Origin: Patescibacteria group bacterium
Lineage (GTDB): Bacteria; Patescibacteriota; UBA1384; 2-12-FULL-50-11
NCBI GenBank assembly: GCA_038058635.1
Contig: JBBUAP010000001.1
Coordinates: 295,877-359,876, forward strand
DNA length: 64,000 nucleotides
Reading direction: 5' to 3'
The notes under the pieces were generated by a model, which had not been told where the DNA came from, did no database searches, and was given only the letters and a program-made list of their open reading frames with translations. Positions within the stretch are counted from its first letter, which is position 1; each line of letters begins with the position of its first letter. Shown here in pieces: positions 4,277 through 52,605 of the stretch. The translations under genes were made by a program, and so were the position numbers.

Positions 4277-4279
4277 CAT

Positions 4280-36202: not shown

Positions 36203-36795
36203 GTCATTTAATCAACGAAGAAGTTAACGCCAACGACCAGGCCTTTCTATACCTAAATTTGCATCCTGATGAACAGATTCTCTTTGTTGTCCGCCACCAC
36301 TGGGCCGGATTCTTGGCGACGCTCGGCCTGTTTATAGCGATGTTTATTTTCCCGGTTTTAATTATTTTCGTCGGTAAACTGCTCGCGGCCAACCAATTCT
36401 CGCAATACCACAGCTTTCTCGTCATGGGTTTGTCGGGCTACTATCTGTTTCTCCTAACATTCCTTTTCGGCAGTTGGTTAGACTTCTACTACGACGTCAT
36501 TTTTATTACCGGCGAGAGAATTTTAAATGTTAACCAAAAAGGTCTATTAGCCCGGGAAGTGTCAGAATTAAATATGCACCAAGTCCAAGATGTTTCGGCA
36601 AATATGGACGGTATTTTGCGCTCTTACTTCAACTTTGGGACGCTGACGGTCGAGACGGCCGGAGAGGGCACTTCTGACGACAAGGCCAGGCACGGGTTGC
36701 AGGGCTATTTCAGCGTCAGTGATATCCCTGACCCCAACCGAATTGCCCGGGTCATTTTGGAATTACACCGCAAGATAGTTAATGAGGAAGAGTAG
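36199..36795 (+). CDS. membrane protein with a bacterial PH-like (YdbS/YdbT-type) domain
   Basis: Two TM helices plus a domain with FLYLNLHPDEQILFVVRHHW, resembling bPH_2. Confidence 0.45.
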   Translation: MSHLINEEVNANDQAFLYLNLHPDEQILFVVRHHWAGFLATLGLFIAMFIFPVLIIFVGKLLAANQFSQYHSFLVMGLSGYYLFLLTFLFGSWLDFYYDVIFITGERILNVNQKGLLAREVSELNMHQVQDVSANMDGILRSYFNFGTLTVETAGEGTSDDKARHGLQGYFSVSDIPDPNRIARVILELHRKIVNEEE

Positions 36796-38887
36796 CTTTT
36801 TACTAGCACTTTTTGTTCTGTTAATCTTTCCCAGCGCTGCTTTCGCTCATGATTTTCATCAAAACGAGGGCCTGTTCTTTAACGCCAACATCGGGGTTTA
36901 TCGCCAGAAATCCGTTGACCGACCGTGGCAGTTAGCTTCGTTGCCAGAGACGGCGGTGATTAAGCAGTCGGTCAGTTTCGATGAGACAATTTATTTAGTA
37001 GTTGAAGTCGGCACCAAACAGTCGCTTTGGCGCCAACAAGATCGGCCGCTGCAGTTTGGTCGATTGAGTGGCGTCGATGAGGCCGATAATATCGCCATTA
37101 AAATAGTTGGTAGTCGGTTGGTAATTTTTTCTGCCAACGGTCTGACGGCCAAGACCCAGCTACTTAATTTAGCCGGCTCTTTGGTCAGTGCCCTGCCAGC
37201 GTTAATCGAATCAGCCGACCAATTATCTCGAGTGGTTGATGTGGCTGGTGAGCTTCATTATTTCCAACCATCTGGTTCGACAGTGCTAATCTGGCGCTAC
37301 GACAGCGGCTGGATTTCGGTTAACCAGCCGTCCTGCCAGAATTCCCAAGTCTTAACCACACCGATTGTCGGTCTGTTTTGCCAAAGTGGCTCGATTATTT
37401 ACCGCCAGTCCTTCGATAACTGGTTGATATTGGCCCTCGCCTCACTGAGACGAGTTTATAGCTCTGAATCGATATTAGGGGGCTGGGATTTGGTCGACGA
37501 GCATTTGTTTCATGTTTGGTCATCTGGCCAAGTGACATCAGTTCAACTACCAACCCTAGCCGCTAACTTGACCGATCAGGTAGTTGTGGTCGGTCGTCGA
37601 ATTTTACTACATCAAATTGATGGCAATTGGTTCGAGCTGAAGTGGCAGGAAAACTTGCCGGTCATCGCCGATATTTCTGGCTCGGCTGGTGGGGCAGTCG
37701 TTGGGCCAGGTGCGGGCGAGCAACTACTGATAAACAGTCTGCCGCCGCTCTTGTCGAATGCGACCGGTAACTGGCAGACGCTGACCGTGGTCGGTCCATT
37801 TAGCTCGGCTCGCCAAACCCCGCTCGGACTATTGATTTGGAACACCGGCTCGTTGACCCAATTTGCGCCGACCGGCTCAACCGTTTTTACCAAAGTTAAT
37901 CCTTGGTCATCGACGACTTCACCAATTCAAGCCGTCGAGATCGGCGCAACTAGTTTTGTCTCGGTGATTACCCAGTCCGGAACCGGCAATGTCAATCTTT
38001 ATAAGACGACCGACTTCACCCATTGGAGCCGGATCACCCTGCCAACCAAACCAACCTTTTCGCCAACTATTCTCGAGGCTCGCGCTCTAACGGCCGGCAG
38101 TTTGGTCGAGCTGTCGGGCGTCATTACAGTTGCCCCGAAAGTAGTCGACAGCGAAGTAGTCTATTTAGAAGATGCGACCGCCGGCATCCAAGTTTATCTA
38201 AATCAAACTAGCGGCGCTTTGCCGACAACCACTAAAATCAACGCCGTTGTCACCGGCGAAGTGAGCACCAGCCAAACCAAACGAGTCTTACTCGATACGC
38301 TGGCCGATTTGGAGTTGGGAGATACGACAACCTGGACCCCGCCAACTATCAACGCCGATCAAGTCATTGATTATCAGGGTCGGTTAGTGGGGCTGAAGGG
38401 ATCGGTAACCGATATTGAGACAGATTATCTGATGCTCGGGTCTTTGAAATTGCACTTCGTCGGCGCCAAAGGAGTTTTTCAGAAGGATGACCAAGCCCAG
38501 TGGCTCTCGGTGATTGACTGGAATTCCAGTAGCGGTAAGGTCGAGGCCTGGGCGACTTCGACTAATTACCAGCTGTTGAGCCGAGTTACGCCGTCAGTAC
38601 CACCGGTCGTTAGTCCGCCGACAGTAACTAGTACAACAACTGCCAGCTCGACAGTCAAAAAAACTAACGCGGTGACGAAAAAGACGACCAGTATCTCGGC
38701 TACCAATCCGACCGTCAAAACCGTTTCTAATCAATCCCAGCCAACCGACACTCCAGTTATTATGGCCGGTGTTCAAAGCCAAAATAATAGTAACGATAGT
38801 AAAACTATTTCGATGAGTGCTGTTAGCTTGTTGGCCGGACTAGTATCTTTCCGCGGTCGAAGATTTCGTCGTTGGCTACCAAACTAG
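36782..38887 (+). CDS. large secreted/surface protein with a C-terminal TM anchor and Arg-rich tail
   Basis: Signal peptide MRKSSFLLALFVLLIFPSAAFA, about 600 aa of beta-rich sequence, a Thr/Pro linker, then SAVSLLAGLVSF-RGRRFRRW. Confidence 0.55.
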   Translation: MRKSSFLLALFVLLIFPSAAFAHDFHQNEGLFFNANIGVYRQKSVDRPWQLASLPETAVIKQSVSFDETIYLVVEVGTKQSLWRQQDRPLQFGRLSGVDEADNIAIKIVGSRLVIFSANGLTAKTQLLNLAGSLVSALPALIESADQLSRVVDVAGELHYFQPSGSTVLIWRYDSGWISVNQPSCQNSQVLTTPIVGLFCQSGSIIYRQSFDNWLILALASLRRVYSSESILGGWDLVDEHLFHVWSSGQVTSVQLPTLAANLTDQVVVVGRRILLHQIDGNWFELKWQENLPVIADISGSAGGAVVGPGAGEQLLINSLPPLLSNATGNWQTLTVVGPFSSARQTPLGLLIWNTGSLTQFAPTGSTVFTKVNPWSSTTSPIQAVEIGATSFVSVITQSGTGNVNLYKTTDFTHWSRITLPTKPTFSPTILEARALTAGSLVELSGVITVAPKVVDSEVVYLEDATAGIQVYLNQTSGALPTTTKINAVVTGEVSTSQTKRVLLDTLADLELGDTTTWTPPTINADQVIDYQGRLVGLKGSVTDIETDYLMLGSLKLHFVGAKGVFQKDDQAQWLSVIDWNSSSGKVEAWATSTNYQLLSRVTPSVPPVVSPPTVTSTTTASSTVKKTNAVTKKTTSISATNPTVKTVSNQSQPTDTPVIMAGVQSQNNSNDSKTISMSAVSLLAGLVSFRGRRFRRWLPN

Positions 38888-38891
38888 ATAC

Positions 38892-40046
38892 CTAAACAAT
38901 CGGATTGGTCGGGACGGCTTCGGTCGAGTGAGCCAGAAGATTAAAGACAGAGCCAACGCCTAGGAGGCAGAAAATAAAGCTGATGAAGGCGCCGATAATT
39001 GGTACGAATATCAGGAGCGCGCTAACCACTACTCCCAGCGCCACTGTCCCAATCGTCAGTTGGTAACCCGCCTCGCGCTTGAACAATCGATAGAGCCAAC
39101 TACCGAGCATTATCTTGCCGATGATCGAGCCGATCATCAGGGTTAAGAGCCAAACGACGAACACGATCCCGGCCAACCCGATGCCAACAATACTCATGGC
39201 CAAAACTATCACGGCGAAGATTGTTACAAGCATTGCGATCAAGCCGTAACCAATCGCCGACAGCGGGGAGCCGAAAGCAAAGTCGGCCACTTGACGCGTG
39301 GTTCGCGGCCAGAAACGGATGATTAACCATCCTAACAAGATGGCGCCAAGTATTCGCAGGAGATATCCAAGCGTAAAGGCAGTGCCGAAGAGAAAGCCAT
39401 ACTTATCAAATTGCGAGGCCTGGTATTGGGTGTAATTGGTTTGACCGGTCACAACGGCGCCGGTTTCGATTGAGGCCGACTTGTTCGATCGGTAATTAAA
39501 GTCGCCGTTAACCTTGGCTTTACTAGTCAGTCGGATATTGTCGGCGTGAATATTGGACGAGCCAACCGACCCTTCAAGGACGACCGAACCAGCAGTAATT
39601 TTCAATTCACCAACAATCTTACCGTTAATGGTGACAGTGCCGCTAGCTACATAAAGACCGCCCATAATCTCGGCCGAATCGGCGATAATTACATCCCCAC
39701 CAGCGATATAGACATCGCCCTCAACCTTGCCCGACAAGGTGACAGTCCCACCGGCAATTCTGACATGGCGCAAAACATGACTTCGAACCGTCACAGTGTC
39801 GCCAGCGATGAACAAGCTGTTGTCTACTTCGCCGTTAGCTAAAATCGTTTGACCGACGATCAATAAATCGCCCTTAATTTTGGCATCGGTGATAATATTC
39901 TTACCAGCCAAATGGAGATCTGTCGGTGTTTCCGTTTCATGGATAACAACCGATTCTTGGTTGGACCGAAATTCGGCTGCCTCGGCCGGCAAGATGAAGG
40001 CCCCAATCAGTAATCCAATGGCTAAAAGGCGCCAAATTGTTTTCAT
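38892..40046 (-). CDS. bactofilin-like beta-helix repeat domain fused to a polytopic membrane domain
   Basis: Signal peptide, repeated G-x-V/I-x-G-D-V motifs as in bactofilin / DUF583, then about 6 TM helices. Confidence 0.5.
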   Translation of the reverse strand: MKTIWRLLAIGLLIGAFILPAEAAEFRSNQESVVIHETETPTDLHLAGKNIITDAKIKGDLLIVGQTILANGEVDNSLFIAGDTVTVRSHVLRHVRIAGGTVTLSGKVEGDVYIAGGDVIIADSAEIMGGLYVASGTVTINGKIVGELKITAGSVVLEGSVGSSNIHADNIRLTSKAKVNGDFNYRSNKSASIETGAVVTGQTNYTQYQASQFDKYGFLFGTAFTLGYLLRILGAILLGWLIIRFWPRTTRQVADFAFGSPLSAIGYGLIAMLVTIFAVIVLAMSIVGIGLAGIVFVVWLLTLMIGSIIGKIMLGSWLYRLFKREAGYQLTIGTVALGVVVSALLIFVPIIGAFISFIFCLLGVGSVFNLLAHSTEAVPTNPIV

Positions 40047-40111
40047 GCTTTTATCATATTCTTTTTGCCCCGAGTGGCAAGAGGGTTCTTTTCAGGTATA
40101 TTGAGCAAATC

Positions 40112-41038
40112 ATGGAGTTTTCCCGACAGGTTGTCTTAGAGCCGAGAGATATTTGGTGGGAGGAGGGCGGAGTTTTTAATCCGGCGGCCGTGGAGCTCGG
40201 CGGAAAAATCCACATGCTCTACCGGGCGGTTGGCAGTGATCACATCTCCAGATTCGGGTTGGCCATTTCGGAAGACGGCGAAACTTTTACCCGTTTCGAC
40301 CAACCGATTTTCGAAGGCGACCCCAACAACCCTTTTGAACGATTGGGGGTTAAAGACCCACGCGCCACCGTCATTGGCCGAGATATTTTTATTACTTACA
40401 CCGCCGTCTCAATTTACGAGGCCGGTACTAAACCAATCAACCAACCGCCTGATCCAACCCACACACCATGGAGAACCAGAGTCAGTATTCTCAAAACCCG
40501 AGATATGCGTTCCTTCCAAAAGCTAGGGGTCGTTCTGCCAGATATCGACAGCAAAGATGCCGTGATCGTGCCAGAGCGTCACCTCGGATTTTACTGGCTA
40601 ATCCACCGGGTAGACCCGAGTATTTTTATTGCTCGATCGCGAGATTTGAAAAAATGGGAAGGCAGCATCGAAATGATGACCGCCAAAGAACCCTGGGAGC
40701 AACTGAAAATTGGAGCCGCCTGTCCGCCGATTGAGGTTGAGGGCGGTTGGCTCCTGCTTTATCACGGCGTTTCATCAAATTACACCTATTCGGTCGGCGC
40801 CGCCCTACTGGCCCGCGAAAATCCGGCCGTTGTATTAAAGCGGGCCAAACACCCAATTATGTCACCACATTTTGATTGGGAGAAGCGTGGCGTGGTCAGT
40901 AATGTCGTTTTTCCGACCGGCGCGATTGTCAGTCACGGCAAAATCCATTTATATTATGGCGGGGCCGACAAAGTCGTTGGTTTGGCGAAGATTCCTCTTG
41001 AGAACATAATGCAGGCCCTAGAGCCTGACAACATCTAA
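40112..41038 (+). CDS. GH130 / DUF377-family glycoside hydrolase or phosphorylase (5-bladed beta-propeller)
   Basis: Motifs GGVFNPAAVELGGKIHMLYRAVG and LLYHGV, typical of the GH130 / PH1107-related glycosidases. Confidence 0.6.
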   Translation: MEFSRQVVLEPRDIWWEEGGVFNPAAVELGGKIHMLYRAVGSDHISRFGLAISEDGETFTRFDQPIFEGDPNNPFERLGVKDPRATVIGRDIFITYTAVSIYEAGTKPINQPPDPTHTPWRTRVSILKTRDMRSFQKLGVVLPDIDSKDAVIVPERHLGFYWLIHRVDPSIFIARSRDLKKWEGSIEMMTAKEPWEQLKIGAACPPIEVEGGWLLLYHGVSSNYTYSVGAALLARENPAVVLKRAKHPIMSPHFDWEKRGVVSNVVFPTGAIVSHGKIHLYYGGADKVVGLAKIPLENIMQALEPDNI

Positions 41039-41230: not shown

Positions 41231-41557
41231 TTGTCAGGATCTAAGATGAGACTTAACTTCTCGCTGGTGACCGACCGTTATCAACAGCTAGCCAACAAAC
41301 GCCGGTTTTGGTGGGTGATCAGCACACTAGTTTTGGTCGGTTTATTTTGGTTGGCGCGAGTCGCCGAACCAACTAGTTTGATAGTCTACCAGCAACTAGT
41401 CGTTCTCTACGCGATCGATAGCGTACTCTTCTTTTTGACCGACCGCACCAATGCTAAGATGGGTGTGTTGACCTTAATTTTTCTAACCACCATGGAGGTG
41501 ATTGTGACTATATTCTACCTAATTAGCCTAACTGCCGGACCCCCAATTCTAATATGA
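41231..41557 (+). CDS. small membrane protein (3 TM)
   Basis: 108 aa, hydrophobic. Its end overlaps the downstream GT2 gene. Confidence 0.4.
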   Translation: MSGSKMRLNFSLVTDRYQQLANKRRFWWVISTLVLVGLFWLARVAEPTSLIVYQQLVVLYAIDSVLFFLTDRTNAKMGVLTLIFLTTMEVIVTIFYLISLTAGPPILI

Positions 41558-43065
41558 GTTTGAGCAGAAGGGCTTGGGAGATAATCCCCGGCCTAACAAC
41601 TTGGGTAACGATCGTTGGCTTACTATTGTTAGTCCGAATCTCTCCACATTTTGTTGCTACCTTCGTTCTGCTCTACGCAGTCTACTGGGTGGTGCGGATT
41701 ATTATTATGACTAGCTATCTAATAGCGGGTTTCTTTCGTTACCGTCGCGAACAGAAAATGGATTGGCAGGTACGCCTGAAGTCAGACTTTCCTGATCGCT
41801 GGGAAAAAATTTACCACTTAGCTTTTGTCCCTACCTATAAGGAAGATATCTCTATTTTGCGACATACTCTCGGAGCAATAAAAAATAGTAACTATCCGTG
41901 CGAAAAGTTAATCGTGGTTGTGGCCTTTGAGGAAAGAGAGAAGGAATTAGCCCCCGGATATGCGAAGACAATTTTGCACGAATTCGAACATGCATTTGGA
42001 GGATTACTAACAACTTTCCACCCCAGCGATATCCCAGGCGAAGTTCGAGGCAAGGGGCCAAACATCACTTGGGCAGCTAGGAGAGCCCTAGAGTACATAG
42101 ATAGTAAAAAAATTGGTCGTGACGATGTAGTGGTAACTACCTTAGACGCCGATAACAGAGTTGATAAAAACTATTTTGGCAATGTCTCTTGGGCGTTTTT
42201 GAAGGATCCTGATCCGCACCACAAGAGTTTTCAGCCCCTGCCGATGTTCTTCAATAACGTCTGGCAAGTTCCTTTGGCCGTAAAAATGACGGCGATGGGA
42301 TCTAGTTTCTGGCAGATGATCCAGGCAATGAGACCGCATCACGCTCGCAATTTTTCTGCCCACTCCCAAAGTCTAAAGGCCTTGGTCGAAACAGATTTTT
42401 GGTCTGTCGAAACAATTGTTGAGGATGGCCACCAGTACTGGCGGTCGTACTTTAAATTTAACGGTAACCATCACATTGTGCCGATCTTTGTACCGGTCTA
42501 TATGGACGCCGTTCAGGGCGAAAATATGTACCAGACTTTTCGCGAACAGTATATCCAGCGCCGTCGATGGTTTTGGGGGGTATCTGACGTACCGTATGTT
42601 TTTTCTCGTTCCTTTAGAAATGGCTCGATTCCATTTTTCTACAAATGGCTCCAGTTCGGTCGGTTATTTGAATCGCACTGGAGTTTGGCAACACAATCTT
42701 TTATTCTACTAATTGGTTGGTTGCCGGCAGTGCTAAATGTTAGTTTCCAAAACTCTGTCTTGGGCTACAATTTCCCGATCGTCTACCGAGGATTTTTGCT
42801 GGCTGCATGGATTGGAATGATCGCCAGTATGGCTATCGCCTCGCTGATTGTCCCACCCCGACCAGGCAGTCGAGCTCGCTACATCTTAACACTGGCAAAG
42901 GAGTGGATACTCGCACCGATCCTGCTGAGCGTGACGGCGATAGTTTTCTCTGCGCTACCGGCGATCGACTCACAAACTCGAATGATGTTTAACAAACCGT
43001 TCACCGTATTCAACGTCACTAAAAAATTTGCTGTGCCAAGCGGTGTAGTTCGTGTCGAGACCTAG
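41554..43065 (+). CDS. processive GT2 glycosyltransferase (cellulose-synthase-like, membrane-embedded)
   Basis: DxD motif TLDADN and a QRRRW (QxxRW) motif. TM helices lie at both ends. Confidence 0.7.
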   Translation: MSLSRRAWEIIPGLTTWVTIVGLLLLVRISPHFVATFVLLYAVYWVVRIIIMTSYLIAGFFRYRREQKMDWQVRLKSDFPDRWEKIYHLAFVPTYKEDISILRHTLGAIKNSNYPCEKLIVVVAFEEREKELAPGYAKTILHEFEHAFGGLLTTFHPSDIPGEVRGKGPNITWAARRALEYIDSKKIGRDDVVVTTLDADNRVDKNYFGNVSWAFLKDPDPHHKSFQPLPMFFNNVWQVPLAVKMTAMGSSFWQMIQAMRPHHARNFSAHSQSLKALVETDFWSVETIVEDGHQYWRSYFKFNGNHHIVPIFVPVYMDAVQGENMYQTFREQYIQRRRWFWGVSDVPYVFSRSFRNGSIPFFYKWLQFGRLFESHWSLATQSFILLIGWLPAVLNVSFQNSVLGYNFPIVYRGFLLAAWIGMIASMAIASLIVPPRPGSRARYILTLAKEWILAPILLSVTAIVFSALPAIDSQTRMMFNKPFTVFNVTKKFAVPSGVVRVET

Positions 43066-43415
43066 TCAAAAGTCCAGCGTTTATTAGCTAGGAAATTCCA
43101 GAAAAAGACAACAAATATCGCCAGAAGTTTTGCGACTTTAAAATTCCAGTCAAAACTATCCGACAGAACGACAACGATAAGGTCGTTTAGTATCAAACCG
43201 ACAATAGCCAGCGTGATAAATCTGTAGAATTTGTTCCAGGTTAATTTTTGTTCGAAGGTCCAGAACGAATTAAATAAATAGTTGTTAACCGCTCCGACGA
43301 GAAATCCAGCGGTTGACGCCCAGATAAGTACCCAGCCAAAGGTTTGGTGGGTGACTATAAGAATTGTGTAGTCAAGCGCGGTTCCTATCACTCCAACACC
43401 AGCGAACCTCAGCAA
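43062..43415 (-). CDS. GtrA-family flippase-like membrane protein
   Basis: 117 aa with 4 TM helices and a GtrA-like layout. Confidence 0.65.
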   Translation of the reverse strand: MLRFAGVGVIGTALDYTILIVTHQTFGWVLIWASTAGFLVGAVNNYLFNSFWTFEQKLTWNKFYRFITLAIVGLILNDLIVVVLSDSFDWNFKVAKLLAIFVVFFWNFLANKRWTFD

Positions 43416-44170
43416 TAATCCGGCGTCCGACAGCCCGCTTTTTTGTAGCGGCCAAGCAGGGAGTTCCTTTTTATTGCCATCAGCTCAAACAGCGTTTTGA
43501 TAAACACCCGACTAGACTGGATCCTGGACTGTTCGTCGTTCTGCCAAGTTATTGGCACCTCTTTTATTTTGTAGCCGTGTTCTTTGGCAATACGCAATAT
43601 TTCCATATCGAAACCCCACCGCCAGATAGTTTGTAGCGCGAATATCTCCTGGGCGGCTCGGCGACTAAAAAGCTTGAAACCACACTGGGTGTCGTGAAGT
43701 CCAGGTAAGACTAGGAGCTGGACAAGGAGATTGCCCAATCGTCCCATCGCGATGCGGGGCACTCCCTGACGGATGGTGATGCGGCTGTCTTTGAGATATC
43801 TCGAGCCAATGATGACTTGATGACTGTCCGTCTGTCGGTGGAGATGCTCGAATTGATTAATTGGCGTTGAGTTGTCGGCGTCAGTAAATAATATCCACTC
43901 ACCTCGGGCGTTTTTCACCCCAAAGTTGACGGCATAGCCCTTGCCACGGTTGGTGCCGTAATTAATAACACGGCAATTTGGAAGATGGAGGCCTTCTACC
44001 ACTGTGGTGGTCTTGTCGCGGCTGCCATCATCAACTACTAAAATTTCGTACGTCTTTTTCCGCTCGTCAAAATATGCGGCAATTTCTTTGAGGGTTTTAG
44101 CGATCCTTTCCGCCTCGTTATAGGCCGGGACAACTACTGAGATCAGTGGAGATTCTATACCCATAGTCAA
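43409..44170 (-). CDS. GT2 polyprenol-phosphate glycosyltransferase (DPM1/Ppm1-like)
   Basis: N-terminal motifs ISVVVPAYNEAERI and VVDDGSRD, and a TDADNS motif. No TM helix. Confidence 0.75.
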   Translation of the reverse strand: MTMGIESPLISVVVPAYNEAERIAKTLKEIAAYFDERKKTYEILVVDDGSRDKTTTVVEGLHLPNCRVINYGTNRGKGYAVNFGVKNARGEWILFTDADNSTPINQFEHLHRQTDSHQVIIGSRYLKDSRITIRQGVPRIAMGRLGNLLVQLLVLPGLHDTQCGFKLFSRRAAQEIFALQTIWRWGFDMEILRIAKEHGYKIKEVPITWQNDEQSRIQSSRVFIKTLFELMAIKRNSLLGRYKKAGCRTPDYC

Positions 44171-45819
44171 TTCGTCAACCAGCAGCTAAAAAGCCCTGGG
44201 GCAATTTTCTCCAGGTCGATACAGTGCTCATTAAATGGAGGGAAGTTGTAAGCAGTGGCACCAAAGATTGCTAGTCCAGTCATTCCGGGTTGCCAATTTT
44301 CGATACTCTGGTAATTTTCCGCTCCAAGGTAGTAATCAAGCGATGACCTCCCCGCCCAGCTATAGTCAACGTAGGGCTTTTCGTTCGGGTGAGCGTCTAC
44401 GTATATTTTTATCCGCTTCAAGTCCTGTCCCCAGTCTAAGTTGGAGTCGGTGGCAATTTTATAACCATTTTTCGATCCACCAGCCAGTTCATTGAAGTAC
44501 CCCAGGTAGGTTGGGTAACTAAGTACAGAGGTGGCTAATAGCCAAGCGAGGAGCGCGAAAGTAGCCGTTCTAAATCGCTGATCAACTGTTACAGCCCAAG
44601 CACTCGCAAGAGTAAGTAGGGGGAAGATTGGCAAGATATGACGGACGCCTAGATTGGCCTTCGAGTCCATCGCTACTAGTAGGAAGACAGCCCCACTTGC
44701 TACCAGACCGATCACCAGGCTGGATCGCGGTTGTCTGGCGACAATTAAGTATGCCGCTCCGCCAAAAATAATCAGCATCGCTAATGGCGTTTTGAGCAGA
44801 AACAGAATCGGGAAGTAGTACCACCAACCAGTCAGCGATTCTTGGCCCAGTAGATATGAGATGTGACCATCGGAAGCGTGATCGATAACCAGAGACAGTC
44901 CTTTTAGGTAGTTTGCCGGCAAGAGTCTTGAAATCGAGCGACTCAGAGTATCGTCAGGGTCCATCTTTGGATCTGTGATCACAACAGGGTCGGGATTACT
45001 TGTCCTGACCATTTTATAGCCGCTCACATTATCGTGGAAACCAAACCCTGCCCAGACCAACGCCCAAACTAGTAATAAACCAACAGCGGATTTGAGTAAG
45101 ACCTGCCGCCAGTCAAACCCTCGCCGCTGTTGGATTAGTGATATCGCAAGCAGCACCAAGAAAGTCGGCAGTAAGATAATCGCCGTATGTTTTACGAGTA
45201 AGCTGAATCCGAAAGCTAGCGCCCAGAGTAAACTCCAGCGCCAAGTCGGTCGTTCAAGCAACTGCCAGAAGCTATAAACTGAGAGTAGGAAACCAAGACT
45301 GATAGCGATGTCGGTAGTTATCAGGTGGCCATGTCCGTTAACTATCGGGTTGAGGGTGTAGAGTGCGGTGGCCGTCAGGGCTGCCGTTGCCCCCCAATGC
45401 TTATATGCAATCCAAAAGATTACCAGACCAAGTAGAAGCGTTAATGCTACCATCGGCATCCGACCCCAAAACAATAGTTGGTCAGGGTTATTGCCGGCCT
45501 TATAGAGCATCGCCTCGCCGAAGGCCCGGTTTTCTTTCCAGGAGTCATAGGATAGATCGCTAGACTTGGCCCAAGCGTCCTCCATTTCGGTTGTTACATG
45601 TGGCTTGATTGCTAACAGAGGCAAAGCAGCCAATATCTTTACTAACGGAGGATGCTCAGGATTAAAACGCCAGTCACCGCGTGTTAGGTAGGTATATCCA
45701 GCAGATAAATGGACAGCTTCGTCGGTAGTTTGAGAATCTGTATCGGCTAGCTTAACCTGGATAATTGTTTGGATGACGAGAAGCAATAGCGCGCCGATTG
45801 CTAGCCATCGCTTCACCAT
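44167..45819 (-). CDS. GT-C glycosyltransferase, family 39/83 (ArnT/PMT-like)
   Basis: N-terminal loop motif DEAVHLSAGYTY...NPEHPPLVK (the DE motif of PMT/ArnT) and about 12 TM helices. Confidence 0.75.
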   Translation of the reverse strand: MVKRWLAIGALLLLVIQTIIQVKLADTDSQTTDEAVHLSAGYTYLTRGDWRFNPEHPPLVKILAALPLLAIKPHVTTEMEDAWAKSSDLSYDSWKENRAFGEAMLYKAGNNPDQLLFWGRMPMVALTLLLGLVIFWIAYKHWGATAALTATALYTLNPIVNGHGHLITTDIAISLGFLLSVYSFWQLLERPTWRWSLLWALAFGFSLLVKHTAIILLPTFLVLLAISLIQQRRGFDWRQVLLKSAVGLLLVWALVWAGFGFHDNVSGYKMVRTSNPDPVVITDPKMDPDDTLSRSISRLLPANYLKGLSLVIDHASDGHISYLLGQESLTGWWYYFPILFLLKTPLAMLIIFGGAAYLIVARQPRSSLVIGLVASGAVFLLVAMDSKANLGVRHILPIFPLLTLASAWAVTVDQRFRTATFALLAWLLATSVLSYPTYLGYFNELAGGSKNGYKIATDSNLDWGQDLKRIKIYVDAHPNEKPYVDYSWAGRSSLDYYLGAENYQSIENWQPGMTGLAIFGATAYNFPPFNEHCIDLEKIAPGLFSCWLTN

Positions 45820-45821
45820 TG

Positions 45822-46421
45822 TTAGTTGTTCTTGGAGTTGGTGACGAAAGCGTTTTGGGAGCAGAGAGTTGGGTTAGTCGAAAAGTCTTGGGCAATACAG
45901 AATAGACGGAGAAAGCCATCACGTTCATACTCGTCTACTAACTGGGAGATCGGGCCGATGTAATTAATGTTTTGGGTGCGTTCCATCCGTGCCATAAGAT
46001 AAAAACCGGTTTTACTGGAGTCTTTGGGGAGGCCGTAGTAGAGATATTGGCCGAAGGCGCTGGGGGCGCAGTCGCCGCTATTGATACTAAATTTGGCTGA
46101 AGGATCTTGAGGAATATTATCTAAATATTTTGGTGCTAAATATTTCCAAACTCCAGGGCTTTGACAACCATAATTGGCCTCCAACTGCCATGATGCTTGA
46201 GGTAAGTTTCTGCCATCTCTGCTGTCGAATAGCGGGTATTCTCGATTATCCAGGTAGAACTGTTCCAAGCCGTTGCGGATAAATTGCAAATCAGTAATTC
46301 GCTGGCTATCGCGTGATCGCGTTAGGGACGCGGCGTATGTATAGGCTCCTATCGACGCCAAAATTCCGATTATCGCCATAACAGTTAGAACTTCAATCAA
46401 TGTAAAACCTCGCAACCTCAT
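45822..46421 (-). CDS. type IV pilin / pseudopilin (prepilin-type N-terminal cleavage-methylation domain)
   Basis: N-terminus MRLRGFTLIEVLTVMAIIGILASIGA. A G|FTLIE cleavage motif followed by a hydrophobic helix. Confidence 0.8.
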   Translation of the reverse strand: MRLRGFTLIEVLTVMAIIGILASIGAYTYAASLTRSRDSQRITDLQFIRNGLEQFYLDNREYPLFDSRDGRNLPQASWQLEANYGCQSPGVWKYLAPKYLDNIPQDPSAKFSINSGDCAPSAFGQYLYYGLPKDSSKTGFYLMARMERTQNINYIGPISQLVDEYERDGFLRLFCIAQDFSTNPTLCSQNAFVTNSKNN

Positions 46422-46519
46422 CTCTTATAGATTACCGATTTTTTTGGTATTTGAAAATCAATCATAGAGAGGCAAGAAAATCCGTAAATTAGCAAACGCA
46501 ACTTTGGTGCTTGACTTGC

Positions 46520-47239: not shown

Positions 47240-47282
47240 CCCATCGTTAACCGATTTGGCGTCAACTGCAAGTTCTTATTGC

Positions 47283-47531
47283 GGGCTTGGCGGGAGCGTA
47301 TTCGCACCCTGTTAGCAGGTTTGTCCGAAGACGACCGGCGTTTCGTGGACGCAACTCCCTTTGACAGCAACCCAGACTCTTCGAAGAATGGAGGAGTAGC
47401 ATGAACAAGGCGAACCATTCCGACTTGACCGCATTCTATCAACACATCTCCGAGATGGGCAGACTGGAGATTGCCAAGCGACGAGCCCAGGGCGAAACGA
47501 TTGGTCAGGCACCACTGGGGTTCCGTAAAGT
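47283..47531 (+). repeat. direct repeat copy 1, about 250 bp, roughly 85% identical to 48439-48683
   Basis: Long near-identical stretch (GGGCTTGGCGGGAGCG...CACCACTGGGGTT) that spans the start of a recombinase-fragment ORF. Confidence 0.8.
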
Positions 47532-47790
47532 CCAAGTGAGCGGCAAATCTACTATCGCGCCAGATCCAGAAACCTTCCCGCTGTTGGTGCTGGCACTGCA
47601 GATGCGCCAAGACGGTAGCACGCTCAGGGAGGTTTGTGCGTTCACGGCAAAAAAGGGCTTGCGGTCTAAACGCGGCAAGGTCATCGGGCTGTCGAGCATG
47701 CTGAAGATACTAAGTCGAGTTACTTGCGAAACTCCAAAATCAAGCGTGGTCGGCCAGCCCAATCTCTGCAGAATACTCTCCAGTTCTTGA
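47401..47790 (+). pseudogene. serine-recombinase fragment (alpha-E helix plus start of the recombinase domain only)
   Basis: ISEMGRLEIAKRRAQGETIGQAPLGFRK and the downstream DPETF...LREVCAF segment resemble the linker and recombinase-domain region of large serine recombinases. The catalytic domain and zinc-ribbon domain are absent. Confidence 0.45.
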
Positions 47791-48388
47791 TACCGGCCAC
47801 TTTGCAGAGCCGTTCATAGCTCTTCTCGTCATGCAAGAAGTGTGGGTTTGATTGGCCCTCCACAACGTCGTTTGAGATCCGGCCTTCCGGCCCGGATCGA
47901 GTCCCGCTGGTAATTTCGGCCTCACTTGCCGGTTGATAGGTCATACTCTCTACCAAGGCAAACCCGTTAGGCCGGATTACCCGAAACATTTCTCTCAGAG
48001 CTTGCCGCTGCTCGGTTCCTCCAAGCAACTCGCTGAAAGCCGACCACAGACATATTGCTGCGTCGAAAGAGTTCTCGCTGTATGGCAGTTGAGTCATCGA
48101 ACCCAAATCGAAAATGCTCGAGAGCTTTTCCTTGCGTACAGTTATCCTGGCCCGCTCGATTAGCTTCTTCGAGAGATCTATCCCAGTTACGTGATATCCG
48201 TCTTTAGCAAGGAGAATTGCAATCCGACCATAGCCGCAGCCTACGTCCAGCACGTCAGCATGGGGTGTCAGCATGGCTTTGATAATATTCGCCGTTGCCT
48301 TATCCCAGTCTGGACGACTCCGGGAAGCAAGTATGTCCGGTCCGATCGTGTTGTAGAAGTCTCTGTTGATCTGTTCGGAGTCCGCCAT
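47720..48388 (-). CDS. class I SAM-dependent methyltransferase (small-molecule type)
   Basis: Motif I VLDVGCGYGR. No DPPY/NPPW motif, so not a DNA methyltransferase. Confidence 0.7.
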   Translation of the reverse strand: MADSEQINRDFYNTIGPDILASRSRPDWDKATANIIKAMLTPHADVLDVGCGYGRIAILLAKDGYHVTGIDLSKKLIERARITVRKEKLSSIFDLGSMTQLPYSENSFDAAICLWSAFSELLGGTEQRQALREMFRVIRPNGFALVESMTYQPASEAEITSGTRSGPEGRISNDVVEGQSNPHFLHDEKSYERLCKVAGIKNWRVFCRDWAGRPRLILEFRK

Positions 48389-48438
48389 GGCAACAATCTA
48401 CCATAAAGGAAGTTCTTTATATATGTGTTCACTTTGGT

Positions 48439-48683
48439 GGGCTTGGCGGGAGCGCATTCGCACCCTGTTAGCAGGTTTGTCCGAAGACGACCGGCGTTTC
48501 GCGGATGCAACTCCTTTTGACAGCATCCCAGACTCTTCGAAGAATGGAGGAGTAGCATGAGCAAGCAGAGCGATCTTACTGCCTTCTACCAAACCATCTC
48601 CGAGATGGGCAGGCTGGAGATTGCCAGGAGGCGAGCCGAAGGGGAGACAATTGGTCCGGCACCACTGGGGTTTCGAAAGGTCG
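48439..48683 (+). repeat. direct repeat copy 2
   Basis: Pairs with 47283-47531. Confidence 0.8.
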
Positions 48684-48754
48684 TGGTGGTCGGCGCCCGA
48701 CACGTGGCCCAAGATTCCCCAACCGGTTGCTCCCCCGTTGCTCCCCACGGGTAA
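48557..48754 (+). pseudogene. second, shorter serine-recombinase fragment
   Basis: MSKQSDLTAFYQTISEMGRLEIARRRAEGETIGPAPLGFRKV is homologous to the N-terminus of the 47401 ORF, then it diverges and stops. Confidence 0.4.
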
Positions 48755-48804
48755 ATCGCAAAGCCCAATGAGACACTCCAAAAGCCGATTTTGAACCTAA
48801 AACC

Positions 48805-49092
48805 TGGAGCCGATGAGCGGATTTGAACCGCTGACCTGCTGTTTACAAACCACCGGCAAGCATGCCCGGCGGGGTAGGTCCTGGTTCCTCAGAGGTCCTT
48901 CGAGACCCCCAGATCATTGTTGGGAGTATTGCATCCAATATGTCAGGCGACACCGACAAACGAAACCGGACTGGCAGACGCCTCGGTCGTGAAGTCCAAG
49001 AATCTCAGAATCCAGTCGCCCCGATGAAAGACGGGGAGACACGGGCTGGGCCCCAAGCCCGAAGGGTCGATAATGGGAAACCTCGCATCGGC
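48805..49092 (-). ncRNA. candidate structured RNA with a tRNA-like 3' end (tmRNA-like, or a remnant of a tRNA/tmRNA integration target)
   Basis: Minus strand: canonical T-arm AGCGG-TTCAAAT-CCGCT, acceptor 3' strand CATCGGC, then T-CCA. The exact complement GCCGATG sits 281 nt upstream and is followed by a TCGAC motif. The roughly 390-nt region is GC-rich with no convincing ORF. Confidence 0.25.
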
Positions 49093-49189
49093 GAGGGCAG
49101 ACATCGGAAAGAACCAGGCCTCGAAGGGAGGACATCAATCCCACACGTAACGTTCGTCGAACACGACTCTAGCCTCCCGAGGGAGCGCT

Positions 49190-50413
49190 CTAGTCAGCCG
49201 GTCTAGCGCCCGTGAGCCCAAAGAGGATCGCACCCGGCCTGTCAGCCGCATCCAACCGCCGCGCAATCTCCAAAGCACCCCAAATGGCATAGGCGGACTC
49301 GGGAGCAGGGGCAATATGCTCACATTCTTCAAAGAGTGCGGCCGCACTCTTCGCTTCCCTGAGCGAGCACGTTAGGCTTGTTAGCCTACCCCTTGACGCG
49401 AGCTCAACGAGCAGAGGAGTCGTGACAGGATACGAGAGACCGGGCGCCCAAGTTTCTTCAGAACTCTTGATGCCCTTGGCATCCGGAAGGCAGGTTGTTA
49501 AACTCCGATATAGCGGACCTTGAGACCCAAACGTACGAACGGGTTTTATGTCGCGGTGTCCAAGTTTATGAGCGTGGTCCGGCTCCACCGCCACAAACTC
49601 GGGGGCCGCAACGTCTCCGCCAACGGGATGATCCAACAAGAAGGGCAGCACCATGCCTCCAAAATTGGTGCCGCCACCACAGCAGCCTACAATCGCATCG
49701 GGAACAACAGACATGCTTGCAAGCTGCTCCTTGGACTCCTGCCCGATTACACTATTAAAACCAACAACAGAATTCAGGAAACAGCCAACTGCGAATCTCG
49801 CCCTCCGCTCCACTAACAGATCCAGGCTTGGTCGGACTTCTGATGCCTCTATGACTCCACCCCATCTATGCACCTGCTCCAGCAACTGCTTGCGACTTGC
49901 CAACAGTGCTTGGGGGGCCATGATCGTGGCCCTGATGCCAAATTGGGCGCAAGCCCATGCTACCGCCACACCCCAATAACCGGAGAGTGTAAAGGCTATC
50001 AACTCCTGAATACCCTCTTGCTTCGCAAACCAGGCTTGCGCTAAGGCCGCGTTGGCCTTGTAGCTGTGCACGGGCGATGCGGTTTCGTCCTTGAACAGGA
50101 TCGTGCTTCGAATGCCAAGAGACCGGCACAGTGTCTTCGCTTCACGTAATGGCGTCGGCCGCCAATCAGCGAGCATTCTGTGCAGGTCGCCGGGAATCTG
50201 TCTTCGCTCCGACCCAACCTCAAGCTGCCAAGCTCCATCCACCAGGATCTTCGCGTGTTGCCCTGGGTCATATCGCTCCGTACACTCCCCGTCTATCCAA
50301 GGTCCCAACTTTAGAACTCCTGGCCACTCTCCAGGAACGCGCCAGCATATCGGAACCCCGATCGTCCGCGCTCGAGTGTCTAAGGGCGATCCACTGTTCA
50401 TTTTCACAAGCAT
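49190..50413 (-). CDS. TrpB2-type PLP-dependent tryptophan-synthase-beta-like enzyme
   Basis: PLP-lysine context LFKDETASPVHSYKANAA, a glycine-rich GCCGGGTNFGG loop and an N-terminal extension as in TrpB2. Confidence 0.65.
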   Translation of the reverse strand: MLVKMNSGSPLDTRARTIGVPICWRVPGEWPGVLKLGPWIDGECTERYDPGQHAKILVDGAWQLEVGSERRQIPGDLHRMLADWRPTPLREAKTLCRSLGIRSTILFKDETASPVHSYKANAALAQAWFAKQEGIQELIAFTLSGYWGVAVAWACAQFGIRATIMAPQALLASRKQLLEQVHRWGGVIEASEVRPSLDLLVERRARFAVGCFLNSVVGFNSVIGQESKEQLASMSVVPDAIVGCCGGGTNFGGMVLPFLLDHPVGGDVAAPEFVAVEPDHAHKLGHRDIKPVRTFGSQGPLYRSLTTCLPDAKGIKSSEETWAPGLSYPVTTPLLVELASRGRLTSLTCSLREAKSAAALFEECEHIAPAPESAYAIWGALEIARRLDAADRPGAILFGLTGARPAD

Positions 50414-50415
50414 AT

Positions 50416-51279
50416 CTACAAAAACTCTATTTGACCAGCATCACAAGATACTAAAGCAGGATGCCTCTTGGGAAGCGAAGTGAACCATTCTTCTAGTAAC
50501 CGCTCGAAATCCACCTTTTGCATCTTCGGTCCCCACAAACCGGCACCCCCGGAACTTAGCTCGTAGGCTCTTTTGTAAGTTTCCGCGGTAAGACGATCGA
50601 CTACGCTTTGAAGAGTTCCGGCTGCCCCACAATACGACTTCAATAAGGCAATCAAGACAACCTCAGCTTCGTTACGTCCCTCGCGCCATTTATCGAACAC
50701 GCCGACATAAAACGCAGCCCCTGCAGGATCAGGATCCCAATATTGCCATCCGACAGTCTCTTCTCTGGATCCAGAAGGCGGAGCACCAGCAATGAGCACT
50801 CTATCATCGCTGACTGAAAACCGAATAGGAAGATCCTGAATCGCCCAAAAGCGTATTTTTCCCGGGTTAGGTGCGTTTCGTACGTACATGAAATGCAAAC
50901 GCCAAAGGAGGTGCGGAAACATAGCGTCCAACGCAACCGGCCCGCAAAAGTCTGATTCCACACCATTGCGCAGGATTGCTGACATCGCTTCCTCCATCTC
51001 GCTTGAAACCCACCAAACCCGCGCTACCGATACTACGCGTTTCCTAGCGGAGACATATAACTCCATAGCTTGACGCAAGTAGAATCGCAGGCCCTGGAAC
51101 TGCTGAAACTCGGCGAGGAACTGCTTGTACTCTTTCCTGGCGACGCTCAAATCGTCCTTGACAAGTCTAATCTCCCTTAACACGGCGAGCATATCCACTC
51201 TTGCTCTCAAATACAACCACACCGTGAGCAGGAGGGATAGGATCGAGGAAAGTGACGCGATAATTACAAAGACTTCCAT
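50416..51279 (-). CDS. hypothetical protein with an N-terminal TM helix (GC-rich island cargo)
   Basis: The start is taken at MEVFVIIASL. The longer 51426 start would overlap the upstream permease gene. Confidence 0.4.
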   Translation of the reverse strand: MEVFVIIASLSSILSLLLTVWLYLRARVDMLAVLREIRLVKDDLSVARKEYKQFLAEFQQFQGLRFYLRQAMELYVSARKRVVSVARVWWVSSEMEEAMSAILRNGVESDFCGPVALDAMFPHLLWRLHFMYVRNAPNPGKIRFWAIQDLPIRFSVSDDRVLIAGAPPSGSREETVGWQYWDPDPAGAAFYVGVFDKWREGRNEAEVVLIALLKSYCGAAGTLQSVVDRLTAETYKRAYELSSGGAGLWGPKMQKVDFERLLEEWFTSLPKRHPALVSCDAGQIEFL

Positions 51280-51352
51280 AGCGTCCTCTTGCGAACAATA
51301 ATTGACATATCGACCCCTGAAATGGACATGATGGCGCTTGACCTGAACATCA

Positions 51353-52508: not shown

Positions 52509-52605
52509 GGGGATTTACCCAGAACTAGCTGCTGAACGTCAATCGTACCTTTTAGCTCTCCGTTTAGACGGAGCAACTCTGCAAACTTGTTCACCAGAGT
52601 CGTGT

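Follow-up and report, generated by a model that had tools for sequence, protein, structure and literature searches.

A Dpm1-like GT2 and a GT-C-fold glycosyltransferase, encoded next to each other in a 64-kb stretch of DNA from an ultrasmall, Patescibacteria-type bacterium (the window), plausibly, if tentatively, form an extracytoplasmic module that depends on a polyprenyl-phosphate sugar and serves as an accessory to a conserved Patescibacteria locus for a synthase-type surface glycan. Systems in which a GT2 and a GT-C together perform decoration outside the cytoplasm are already established (PMC11194591). Across relatives, ties of the cluster to the polysaccharide synthase are more widespread than those to the type IV pilin gene that it also contains, so that pilin glycosylation, though possible, has less support than the reading given here; the pilin could serve as an additional acceptor or as an alternative one, and is not needed to explain the module.

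On the favoured reading, the Dpm1-like GT2, which is normally fused to a GtrA/DPMS domain, would by homology take a sugar, presumably a hexose, from its nucleotide-activated form and attach it to polyprenyl phosphate on the inner side of the membrane. The lipid-linked sugar would then move to the outer face, perhaps helped by the GtrA-like domain, which is dispensable in many relatives. There, the GT-C enzyme, whose fold and motif are described below, would pass the sugar from its outward-facing D33-E34 loop to an acceptor. As judged from gene linkage, the likeliest acceptor is the glycan which the BcsA/HAS-like synthase and its small membrane partner would polymerise and extrude, and the sugar would be added as a branch after polymerisation, as in GtrABC or lipoteichoic-acid glycosylation. 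The glycan is possibly mannose-based, the leading guess because a GH130 gene of the beta-1,2-mannoside-phosphorylase-like kind heads the operon and the module's enzymes are of the Dpm1 and PMT types.

Gene organisation and a frameshift in the Dpm1-like gene

The cluster consists of two operons on opposite strands. The plus-strand operon begins with the GH130 gene (40037-41038, with a start that is probably the ATG near 40115), continues with an ORF for a 108-aa membrane protein of approximately three TM helices (41231-41557), a putative accessory subunit of the synthase, and ends with the gene for a 503-aa membrane-embedded, processive-type GT2 synthase resembling BcsA and hyaluronan synthase (41554-43065), the last two overlapping by 4 nt. 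The minus-strand operon starts with the gene for a type IV pilin or GspG-like pseudopilin with four Cys (45822-46421), followed after a 2-nt gap, and with no terminator-like site in between, by the GT-C gene (44167-45819). Next come the gene for the Dpm1/GtrB-like polyprenyl-phosphate hexose synthase (43409-44170) and an ORF for a GtrA/DPMS-type 4-TM domain (43062-43415), on which the plus-strand synthase gene converges with a 4-nt overlap. A sigma-70-like match 5' of the pilin gene on the minus strand (46461-46488, TTTACG-16-TATGAT, 9/12 matches) offers weak evidence of a promoter.

An earlier note on this DNA had listed these ORFs; all of them lie exactly at the coordinates it gave, its family assignments hold in Pfam and NCBIfam matches, and the genome, which it had called Patescibacteria-like, is indeed that of a member of the Patescibacteria. 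It had also described the cellulose-synthase-like GT2 as flanking the minus-strand genes; this neighbour is present, but on the plus strand and convergent with them. Translational coupling, which the note had proposed for the whole minus-strand set, is borne out by the 4-nt overlap of the GT-C and Dpm1-like genes (44167-44170), but the 7-nt overlap of the Dpm1-like and GtrA ORFs is the product of a frameshift. The surrounding ORFs of the window encode cell-envelope functions (SLT, MreB, MreC, PBP2, FtsEX, CHAP and a polysaccharide deacetylase).

The frameshift lies in a homopolymer at 43439-43444 on the minus strand, which is A6 in the window (CGCTAC-AAAAAA-GCGGG) and A7 in a 98%-identical relative (L167). 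In this relative, AAAAAAA is read in a single frame encoding ...GRYKKSGLSDAGLLLRFAGVG..., and the same peptide is found in the +2 frame of the window. A fused protein of approximately 365 aa, with Glycos_transf_2 and GtrA_DPMS_TM domains, is encoded in L167 and in five other loci (L081, L001, L163, L164 and L165), whereas the GtrA domain is absent in L161, L162, L166, the P0012 contig, L007, L004-L006 and L169. From this comparison of reading frames, the GtrA ORF evidently encodes what should be the C-terminus of the Dpm1-like synthase, its membrane domain, which a frameshift in this assembly has detached, and the system is thus one of two enzymes, synthase and GT-C, rather than of three components as first described. 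Nor does GtrA stand as an independent conserved component, being absent from about half of the relatives.

The glycosyltransferases and their partners

The catalytic domain of the Dpm1-like GT2 matches PF00535 at 112 bits and, in phmmer searches, aligns over its full length (residues 6-230) with the P. furiosus DPMS (5mlz), with further matches to GtrB (5ekp) and ArnC, in agreement with its annotation in the earlier note as a polyprenyl-phosphate-sugar synthase. All NCBIfam equivalogs score far below their own cutoffs; for instance, the ArnC equivalog NF007986 reaches 51.5 bits against a cutoff of 529. The GtrA ORF matches PF04138 (GtrA_DPMS_TM) at 92 bits.

The GT-C enzyme belongs to an uncharacterised PMT_2 family with more than 3000 homologues. 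It matches PF13231 (PMT_2) at 43.2 bits (gathering score 26.1) and PF02366 (PMT) at 33.2 bits (gathering score 22.7), in both cases over residues 118-256 only, and a search with the family profile (A1) found no solved relative, and no similarity to any solved PMT sequence. The AF2 model (pLDDT 82, pTM 0.87) has a true GT-C fold, of the GT-C_A type, as had been proposed. Foldseek places it about equally near to ArnT of GT83 (5f15, E 6.6e-9, TM 0.51) and to Pmt4 of GT39 (9i5k, E 3.3e-7, TM 0.49), with ArnT slightly better and STT3, AftA and ALG9 next; the probability is 1.00 for ArnT, Pmt4, STT3 and AftA. D33-E34 in the first outer loop is invariant in alignment A1, and the C-terminal outer domain is conserved (DSNLDWGQD). 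Outer loop 1 carries an HPPLxK-like motif besides the DE motif, and both presumably recall PMT motifs. No MIR or TPR Pfam match was found in the GT-C, and the loop corresponding to the MIR position (265-290) is short and modelled with low confidence. Bacterial PMTs also lack the MIR domain, so its absence here weighs little.

For the 503-aa synthase, the PF13632 (Glyco_trans_2_3) match is weak (27.4 bits against a cutoff of 27). The motifs D198-x-D200, E290-D291 and Q335-xx-R338-W339 are invariant in a 23-sequence alignment (A2), and the AF2 model (pLDDT 79.5, pTM 0.80) finds its best Foldseek matches in BcsA (5ej1/4p00) and in the Chlorella-virus and Xenopus hyaluronan synthases (E ~1e-8, TM ~0.5). 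The synthase is well conserved between lineages of Patescibacteria: among the best sequence matches, which carry Berkelbacteria and Saccharimonadales names, identity is 47-87%, and no characterised homologue of the synthase with its small partner was found. The small partner itself has no Pfam match, yet a hydrophobic ORF of 80-137 aa lies directly 5' of the synthase in 27 of 30 loci, with a sequence that diverges strongly between clades. The third member of the operon matches PF04041 at 199 bits and the NCBIfam beta-1,2-mannobiose phosphorylase NF052550 at 236 bits, under the cutoff of 450, and its nearest solved structures, 7fip and 9fj8, align over the full length at approximately 180 bits. 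It is thus a GH130 family member that resembles beta-1,2-mannoside phosphorylases, a putative specificity, and is predicted to be cytoplasmic. The order GH130, small membrane protein and GT2 recurs in L081, L161, L163, L164, L166, L168, L169 and L007.

Gene linkage and the choice of acceptor

The arrangement was compared across approximately 170 related loci, and in a close set of 28 non-redundant loci whose GT-C reaches 300 bits or more in comparison with that of the window. Related genomes repeat the gene arrangement, which is therefore not due to chance. Across the larger set, the most widespread partner of the GT-C is the 503-aa synthase with its small membrane protein, often translationally coupled to it, and within 3 kb of the GT-C in the close set the synthase is found in 24 of the 28 loci and the pilin in 10 of 28. 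In the deeper, paraphyletic loci, the small membrane protein, GT2 synthase, GT-C and sometimes then the Dpm1-like GT2 follow one another on a single strand, abutting, with overlaps of up to 19 nt (often 4 nt) or gaps of up to 17 nt. These loci, including the sister clade, have no pilin within 10 kb, and the GT-C of the sister clade is translationally coupled to the cellulose-synthase-like GT2. In addition, the synthase is much better conserved than the GT-C (87% against 62% identity between L081 and the window) and occurs without it (L168 and L170), as would be the case if the synthase were the core polymerising enzyme and the GT-C part of a dispensable decorating module. The second idea of the earlier note, that the glycan of the neighbouring GT2 is what the module modifies, is supported by linkage and better supported than its pilin idea, the glycan being a putative acceptor. 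Against decoration of the polymer, the GT-C of the window clade is co-oriented with the pilin gene and lies 2-46 nt downstream of it, convergent with the synthase gene and not co-transcribed with it, and in three well-sampled loci (L165, L008 and L084) the GT-C has neither synthase nor pilin nearby. In a fourth, L088, neither partner was seen, but the contig is too short to judge. Moreover, approximately 25 kb around the cluster is syntenic within the lineage, so that part of the adjacency may be inherited and not selected.

The main alternative, which we consider unlikely though a genuine contender, is that the GT-C transfers a polyprenyl-phosphate hexose onto Ser or Thr of the co-transcribed pilin before assembly, with the globular domain at the outer face. 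The N-terminus of the pilin, MRLRG/FTLIEVLTVMAIIGILA, comprises a class III signal peptide followed by a hydrophobic alpha-1 helix, PF07963 (N_methyl), TIGR02532 and TIGR01710 (GspG, 46 bits) match, and its PDB matches are to the N-terminal regions of geopilin, GspG and PilE. Orthologues occur in 11 related loci. The pilin gene lies directly upstream of the GT-C gene in at least nine relatives, in which GT-C identity is 45-96%, and the order pilin, GT-C, Dpm1-like GT2, with gaps of 1-46 nt and no terminator, is found in the window and in L167, L081, L161, L162, L163, L164, L166, L001 and the P0012 contig, which favours this reading. So does the case of L007, where the pilin gene has been relocated and is still inside the cluster, as does the scarcity of prepilin-like ORFs outside this family (8 in ~2 Mb; the pilin carries the sole prepilin motif of the window). 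There is also a precedent in P. aeruginosa group IV, where pilA is directly followed by the gene for the GT-C TfpW, without which the pilin is not arabinosylated and which works with a GtrA-like helper (10.1101/2020.04.19.049825; PMC11194591).

The same comparison tells against the pilin as the principal acceptor. The linkage to pilin that the earlier note had emphasised is retained in relatives, but the pilin-linked loci form a monophyletic group in the GT-C tree as in the GT2 tree, and their sister clade has no such link, its GT-C being the one coupled to the synthase. The pilin link is real but, as judged from these trees, arose once, in one clade. Furthermore, the pilin keeps to the synthase rather than to the GT-C: in L168, which is nested within the pilin clade, the pair of GT-C and Dpm1-like GT2 has been lost, and in L169 the pair lies on the other side, and in both the pilin is still beside the GT2 synthase. 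The window pilin has no Ser/Thr-rich tract (S+T 13%, at most 4 in any stretch of 10 residues), and no Ser or Thr in the globular part is invariant across orthologues, although several of them are rich in S/T/P in the loop that follows the conserved ARMER strand. The pilin is also an orphan, with no T4P assembly genes (PilB/C/D/N/O) in the 64-kb window, where the only T4P-type match is an FtsA-like ORF (10998-12242) whose 27.2 bits barely pass the PilM_2 cutoff of 27; the machinery could be encoded elsewhere in the genome. For Patescibacteria, an experimental study of T4P describes pilin glycosylation as predicted and not demonstrated (PMC11623550).

Three further readings appear improbable. 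The first is general protein O-mannosylation, in which the Dpm1-like GT2 would supply polyprenyl-P-mannose and the GT-C would mannosylate many secreted or surface proteins, as in actinobacterial Ppm1/Pmt, with pilin and synthase as mere neighbours. The PMT and PMT_2 matches above gathering scores, the motifs of outer loop 1, the place of Pmt4 among the best structural matches and the GT-C loci with neither partner nearby all suit such a role, whereas the failure of profile A1 to detect solved PMT sequences, the slightly higher fold score of ArnT and the operon coupling to the synthase in the deeper clades, which is not expected of a housekeeping PMT, do not.

Of similarly low probability is an integrated synthase-dependent pathway, whereby the Dpm1-like GT2 would prime the lipid, the BcsA-like GT2 would elongate and export the chain, and the GT-C would move it en bloc to pilin, another protein or the cell wall. 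Some O-antigens are elongated by a synthase on a lipid-linked primer. Such a pathway would account for the five or six genes all lying together, is compatible with both operon layouts, and would explain how about half of the relatives can do without the GtrA domain, as export of the chain by the BcsA-like GT2 would make a flippase unnecessary. It is entirely conjectural, however; many colinear loci (L002, L009-L012) have the synthase with no Dpm1-like GT2 nearby, others have it without a GT-C (L168, L170), and the nearest GT-C_A enzymes, ArnT and PMT, transfer single sugars. An elaboration of it, in which all six genes make up a new protein glycosylation pathway, the Dpm1-like GT2 priming, the BcsA-like GT2 with its small partner elongating and exporting possibly a beta-mannan chain, the GT-C acting as oligosaccharyltransferase onto the co-encoded pilin and the GH130 enzyme trimming or recycling, is slightly less probable again; it would imply polysaccharide-coated pili on ultrasmall episymbiotic bacteria.

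Equally doubtful is modification of a membrane-anchored lipoglycan or scavenged lipid, akin to ArnT or to lipomannan or LTA glycosylation, which the ArnT match and the cell-envelope neighbourhood would fit, but which has against it the lack of Arn pathway genes among the window ORFs scanned, the ArnC equivalog score of ~51 bits, the absence of any cluster gene indicating a lipid acceptor, and the general view of Patescibacteria as monoderm and without lipid A.

Significance and comparison with known systems

Patescibacteria attach to other microbes, and their surface molecules, including pili, decide host binding, yet their glycobiology is almost unexplored. The 503-aa synthase and its small partner may make a major surface polymer. 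Natural variants, in which the GT-C module is present, absent or rearranged and the pilin present or absent, provide an experimental handle on polymer, decoration and pilus glycosylation. If the module is an ordinary Gtr-like decoration module, its value is mainly one of annotation, in the form of a frameshift-corrected gene model and a defined GT-C subfamily.

P. furiosus DPMS (5mlz) belongs to the type III Dpm synthases and carries a GtrA-like domain of four TM helices at its C-terminus, and the fused relatives share its architecture as well as the aligned catalytic domain; by contrast, in the window a frameshift divides the gene, and many relatives have no TM domain. The 503-aa synthase resembles BcsA, hyaluronan synthase, PgaC and NodC in fold, in its DxD/ED/QxxRW motifs and in the TM helices flanking the GT2 domain, but lacks both a PilZ or c-di-GMP domain and a partner of the BcsB kind, and is instead accompanied by the small 3-TM protein and the GH130 gene. 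With actinobacterial Ppm1/Pmt (GT39) and eukaryotic PMTs, the module shares a Dpm1-type synthase and a PMT-Pfam GT-C with the DE motif in outer loop 1, whereas the GT-C has no MIR domain or HMM-level similarity to solved PMTs and is structurally as near to ArnT.

The TfpW system (pilA-tfpW-tfpX and D-Araf genes) is similar in that the GT-C gene lies directly 3' of the pilin gene, with a GtrA-like helper and a donor linked to lipid phosphate, the last by homology in the window (10.1101/2020.04.19.049825). TfpW differs in having 646 aa, a TPR domain, and a polyprenyl-P-D-Araf donor from DprE1/E2 homologues, whereas the 64-kb window contains no Dpr-like genes (DprE1/DprE2), its donor synthase resembles Dpm1, and the wider partner of its GT-C is a polysaccharide synthase.

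Gram-positive analogues of the Gtr system are found in CsbB/GtcA/YfhO and GacI/GacL, which glycosylate cell-wall polymers. In O-antigen glucosylation by GtrA/GtrB/GtrC, as proposed for the window module, a GT2 makes a polyprenyl-phosphate monosaccharide that a GT-C adds to a polymer, nascent or finished, outside the cytoplasm, and both kinds of module are optional and variable between relatives (PMC11194591). The window module differs from Gtr in that its GtrA-like portion, which is often missing, belongs to the synthase as a domain rather than forming a separate small flippase, and in that its GT-C belongs to the PMT_2 family without a solved sequence relative. It differs from the Gtr, CsbB and GacI kinds alike in its partner polymer pathway, which is a BcsA/HAS-type synthase and not a Wzy, ABC or LtaS system.

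Gene content of the locus

Gene calls and family assignments in the window were made from a six-frame ORF list together with Pfam and NCBIfam, by which all ORF coordinates of an earlier note were reproduced and its family assignments upheld. On the minus strand lie a 199-aa ORF (45822-46421; N_methyl plus a GspG-like match), a 550-aa ORF (44167-45819; PMT_2, 43 bits, and PMT, 33 bits), a 253-aa Dpm1-like ORF (43409-44170; Glycos_transf_2, 112 bits) and a 117-aa ORF (43062-43415; GtrA_DPMS_TM, 92 bits). Convergent with these genes is a plus-strand operon containing a 503-aa GT2 (41554-43065), a marginal match to Glyco_trans_2_3 at 27.4 bits. Two further plus-strand genes had been left out of the earlier note, namely a 108-aa membrane ORF (41231-41557) and, at the upstream end of the operon, a GH130 gene (40037/40115-41038). 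The 503-aa GT2 overlaps the 108-aa ORF, itself downstream of GH130, by 4 nt, and is thus the final gene of its own operon. The proposal that the genome is Patescibacteria-like is borne out by the source-named homologues of the 550-aa and 503-aa proteins, which come from Berkelbacteria, Saccharimonadales, Gracilibacteria or 'Patescibacteria group'.

The surroundings of the locus are largely cell-envelope housekeeping genes (SLT, MreB, MreC, PBP2, YceG, FtsEX, CHAP, SecA and a polysaccharide deacetylase). A bactofilin-like/DUF8173 membrane protein (38892-40046) and a secreted protein of 701 aa, Ser/Thr-rich and unmatched in Pfam (36782-38887), are syntenic with the cluster in four related loci (L161, L164, L166 and L169) and on the related P0012 contig; the C-terminal region of the 701-aa protein (…TVTSTTTASSTVKKTNAVTKKTTSISATNPTVKTVS…) would be a plausible O-glycosylation target. 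An insertion of ~7 kb (~47250-54400; GC 0.53-0.56 versus ~0.48), likely a mobile element that has integrated, lies between an FNR-like gene and tRNA-Glu(ttc) (54406-54480). On it are genes for a SAM methyltransferase (47720-48388), a PLP enzyme (49190-50413), an ABC permease (51353-52114) and a large serine recombinase (52751-54445). The insertion is missing from the related locus L167, where the FNR, tRNA-Glu and deacetylase genes are contiguous. Within the insertion is a ~260-bp direct duplication (47283-47544 and 48439-48694; 93% and 79% identity), the copies giving similar N-terminal peptides, …DLTAFYQxISEMGRLEIAxRRAxGETIGxAPLGFRKV. Elsewhere, a tmRNA gene (59594-59982) has a long predicted tag, ANVMSKVKATVANAFGSFVAQPVFA, and a 249-aa ORF (4208-4957) that overlaps tRNA-Leu (4194-4277) is probably spurious.

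The GT-C, Dpm1-like and BcsA/HAS-like enzymes

The 550-aa protein has more than 3000 homologues, and their alignment (A1) contains an invariant D33-E34-x-x-H37 directly after TM1, in addition to the motifs NPEHPPLxK, R393-H394 and a C-terminal DSNLDWGQD. Against solved structures, the A1 profile found no relative, only a chance match to haemoglobin, and the corresponding profile of the 503-aa GT2 (A2) had zero matches, so classification of both proteins was based on predicted folds. The AlphaFold model of the 550-aa protein is confident (pLDDT 82, pTM 0.87) and matches the GT-C_A enzymes ArnT (E 6.6e-9, TM 0.51) and Pmt4 (3.3e-7, 0.49), followed by STT3, AftA, ALG9, PglB and Pmt1-Pmt2. Judged by this model, the 550-aa protein is a genuine GT-C enzyme, about equally far from GT83 and GT39, so that the GT39-versus-GT83 check proposed in the earlier note does not discriminate.

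In the case of the 503-aa GT2, the DxD, ED and QxxRW motifs are invariant, and the best fold matches of its model (pLDDT 79.5) are BcsA and hyaluronan synthases, which supports its earlier description as a processive cellulose-synthase-like enzyme. A small hydrophobic ORF (80-137 aa, ~3 TM helices) directly precedes the synthase gene in 27 of 30 loci. From one clade to another, hardly any sequence similarity can be recognised between these ORFs; their product probably serves the synthase as an obligate small subunit. The GH130 protein aligns from end to end with beta-1,2-mannobiose and 1,2-beta-oligomannan phosphorylases, at a score below the NCBIfam equivalog cutoff. GH130 is first in the synthase operon in many relatives (for instance, L168 4795-5712 and L169 4792-5745), a hint that the polymer or primer may be a beta-mannoside.

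The earlier note had treated the GtrA ORF as a separate flippase, the third component of a synthase, flippase and GT-C triad. The Dpm1-like ORF stops, and the GtrA ORF starts, at a minus-strand A6 run (43439-43444), and a shift of one base at this run yields ...GRYKKSGLSDAGLLLRFAGVG..., identical to the junction of a 369-aa protein in L167. In L167, whose 503-aa GT2 is 98% identical to that of the window, the equivalent site is A7 and there is a single ORF, on which Pfam finds Glycos_transf_2 and GtrA_DPMS_TM together. The same fusion is present in L081, L001, L163, L164 and L165, and has the architecture of the Pyrococcus DPMS, which aligns with the catalytic domain over its full length. The window's 'GtrA flippase' is a frameshifted domain of the Dpm1-like synthase; possible causes of the frameshift are an error in the assembly, a genuine split of the gene, and slippage. 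In L161, L162, L166, the P0012 contig, L007, L004-L006 and L169, a synthase of just ~240 aa has no GtrA domain. The system therefore consists of two enzymes, and conservation does not extend to a dedicated flippase. The presence of GtrA across loci was taken from Pfam tables; a family HMM built from the fused proteins was dropped, its 212 matches including unrelated GT2 and TM ORFs.

Genomic partners of the Dpm1-like/GT-C pair

Loci around GT-C relatives were sampled from genomes (80) and metagenomes (80), with ten contigs added by exact-protein look-up, and every mechanically called ORF was searched with the window proteins and family HMMs. In this sample, in which synthase-only and pilin-only genomes are under-represented because sampling went through GT-C, the 503-aa GT2 is no more than 3 kb away from GT-C in 24 of 28 non-redundant loci with GT-C scores of at least 300 bits, and a pilin orthologue in 10 of the 28. 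The Dpm1/DPMS-type synthase and GT-C are co-transcribed, and the widest and oldest genomic partner of the pair is the BcsA/HAS-like synthase with its small membrane subunit.

Two layouts are found. In the deeper, paraphyletic set (L002-L006, L009-L012, L020, L083, L085-L087 and L090), the small TM ORF, the GT2 synthase, GT-C and sometimes the Dpm1-like GT2 follow each other on a single strand, with genes that abut (19-nt overlap to 17-nt gap, often a 4-nt overlap) and no pilin within 10 kb. In the window-type layout (the window, L167, L081, L161-L164, L166, L001 and the P0012 contig), pilin, GT-C and Dpm1-like GT2 are convergent with the GT2 synthase, the small TM ORF and usually GH130. GT-C relatives of 35% identity or less, including those of Verrucomicrobia, Acidobacteriota and Omnitrophota, have neither synthase nor pilin nearby.

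Pilin-linked loci form a single clade in simple neighbour-joining trees of trimmed alignments of both GT-C and the synthase, and the pilin association therefore arose once. Having entered the neighbourhood, the pilin stayed, and the association outlasts rearrangement within the clade. For instance, the pilin is located after the Dpm1-like gene in L007, whereas L169 has its GT-C and Dpm1-like genes beyond the GH130 operon and its pilin directly next to the 3' end of the synthase gene. The pilin linkage, whose conservation had been proposed as a check, is conserved in at least 9 relatives, with a single origin and a sister clade without pilin. In L165, where there is no synthase, a heliorhodopsin gene (6198-6959) directly upstream of GT-C occupies the pilin's usual place.

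Candidate acceptors of the GT-C enzyme

A Gtr-like extracytoplasmic decoration module acting on the synthase product is tentatively put forward as the most economical mechanism, with chances somewhat short of even. Such decoration is an established kind of system (PMC11194591). Here, the Dpm1-like GT2 and GT-C would constitute the module, and the acceptor would be the polymer made by the BcsA/HAS-like synthase. Synthase conservation is well above that of GT-C (87% versus 62% in L081), and in L170 the synthase and its small partner occur without the GT-C module. Such a pairing of a well-conserved core synthase and a faster-evolving GT-C module of patchy occurrence is in line with how decoration systems usually behave. 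Taken together, the GH130, Dpm1-like and PMT-like enzymes suggest mannose; we infer this sugar, as we do the lipid carrier and the acceptor of the module.

That GT-C glycosylates the pilin, the reading of the earlier note, is a serious rival, if a less likely one. In the window's clade GT-C lies within the pilin operon, with a gap of 2 nt and no terminator found between the two genes that would argue for separate expression, and TfpW sets a precedent for pilin glycosylation by a GT-C whose gene adjoins pilA, there assisted by a GtrA-like protein (10.1101/2020.04.19.049825). Against this reading stand the single origin of the pilin link, the lack of a pilin in the sister clade and the persistence of pilin-synthase adjacency without GT-C. 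The L168 locus, from a complete 768-kb genome that nests next to L163 and L164 in the synthase tree, has no GT-C or Dpm1-like genes, yet its pilin, an orthologue of 42-45% identity, still directly adjoins the synthase gene.

The pilin itself, the 199-aa protein, shows a canonical class III signal (MRLRG|FTLIEV), the sole prepilin motif in the 64-kb window, and a GspG-like N-terminal half; no pilus assembly genes were found in those 64 kb. Because a first prepilin regex proved too stringent, passing over true orthologues, prepilins were sought with a looser pattern and a family HMM. As to the Ser/Thr-rich surface by which pilin glycosylation was to be judged, no such tract was found in the window pilin and its surface Ser/Thr are not invariant among orthologues, which counts against the pilin as acceptor; several orthologues do carry a semi-conserved loop, N-x-S/T or S/T/P-rich, that follows the ARMER strand and is missing from the window copy, and the result as a whole is not decisive for either reading. 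In L057, an unrelated 278-aa prepilin-like ORF (7048-7884) is divergent from, and 39 nt away from, a distant (32% identical) GT-C, an arrangement that could well be due to chance, as ~2 Mb contained 8 ORFs of this kind. The cyanobacterial Ogt encoded beside pilA was ruled out as a relative, being a cytoplasmic GT41 and not a GT-C.

General protein O-mannosylation, an integrated synthase-dependent pathway and lipid or lipoglycan modification share what probability remains beside polymer decoration and pilin glycosylation. ArnT-type lipid A modification was rejected because of the gene context in the window.

In function, the pair is of a known kind, a polyprenyl-phosphate sugar synthase with a GT-C transferase, although membership in the GT39, GT83 or TfpW family is not demonstrable. 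The GT-C subfamily, which has no characterised members, is new, as is the embedding of a pilin gene in the same cluster in one Patescibacteria clade. No description of this cluster in Patescibacteria was found in the literature, and in a study of Saccharibacteria pili, pilin glycosylation was only predicted (PMC11623550). The synthase would make a conserved polymer, and natural genetic variants make the acceptor question testable. In systems described elsewhere, the partners are the Wzy, ABC and LtaS pathways, whereas here GT-C is coupled to a synthase-type polysaccharide pathway, a combination that is new.
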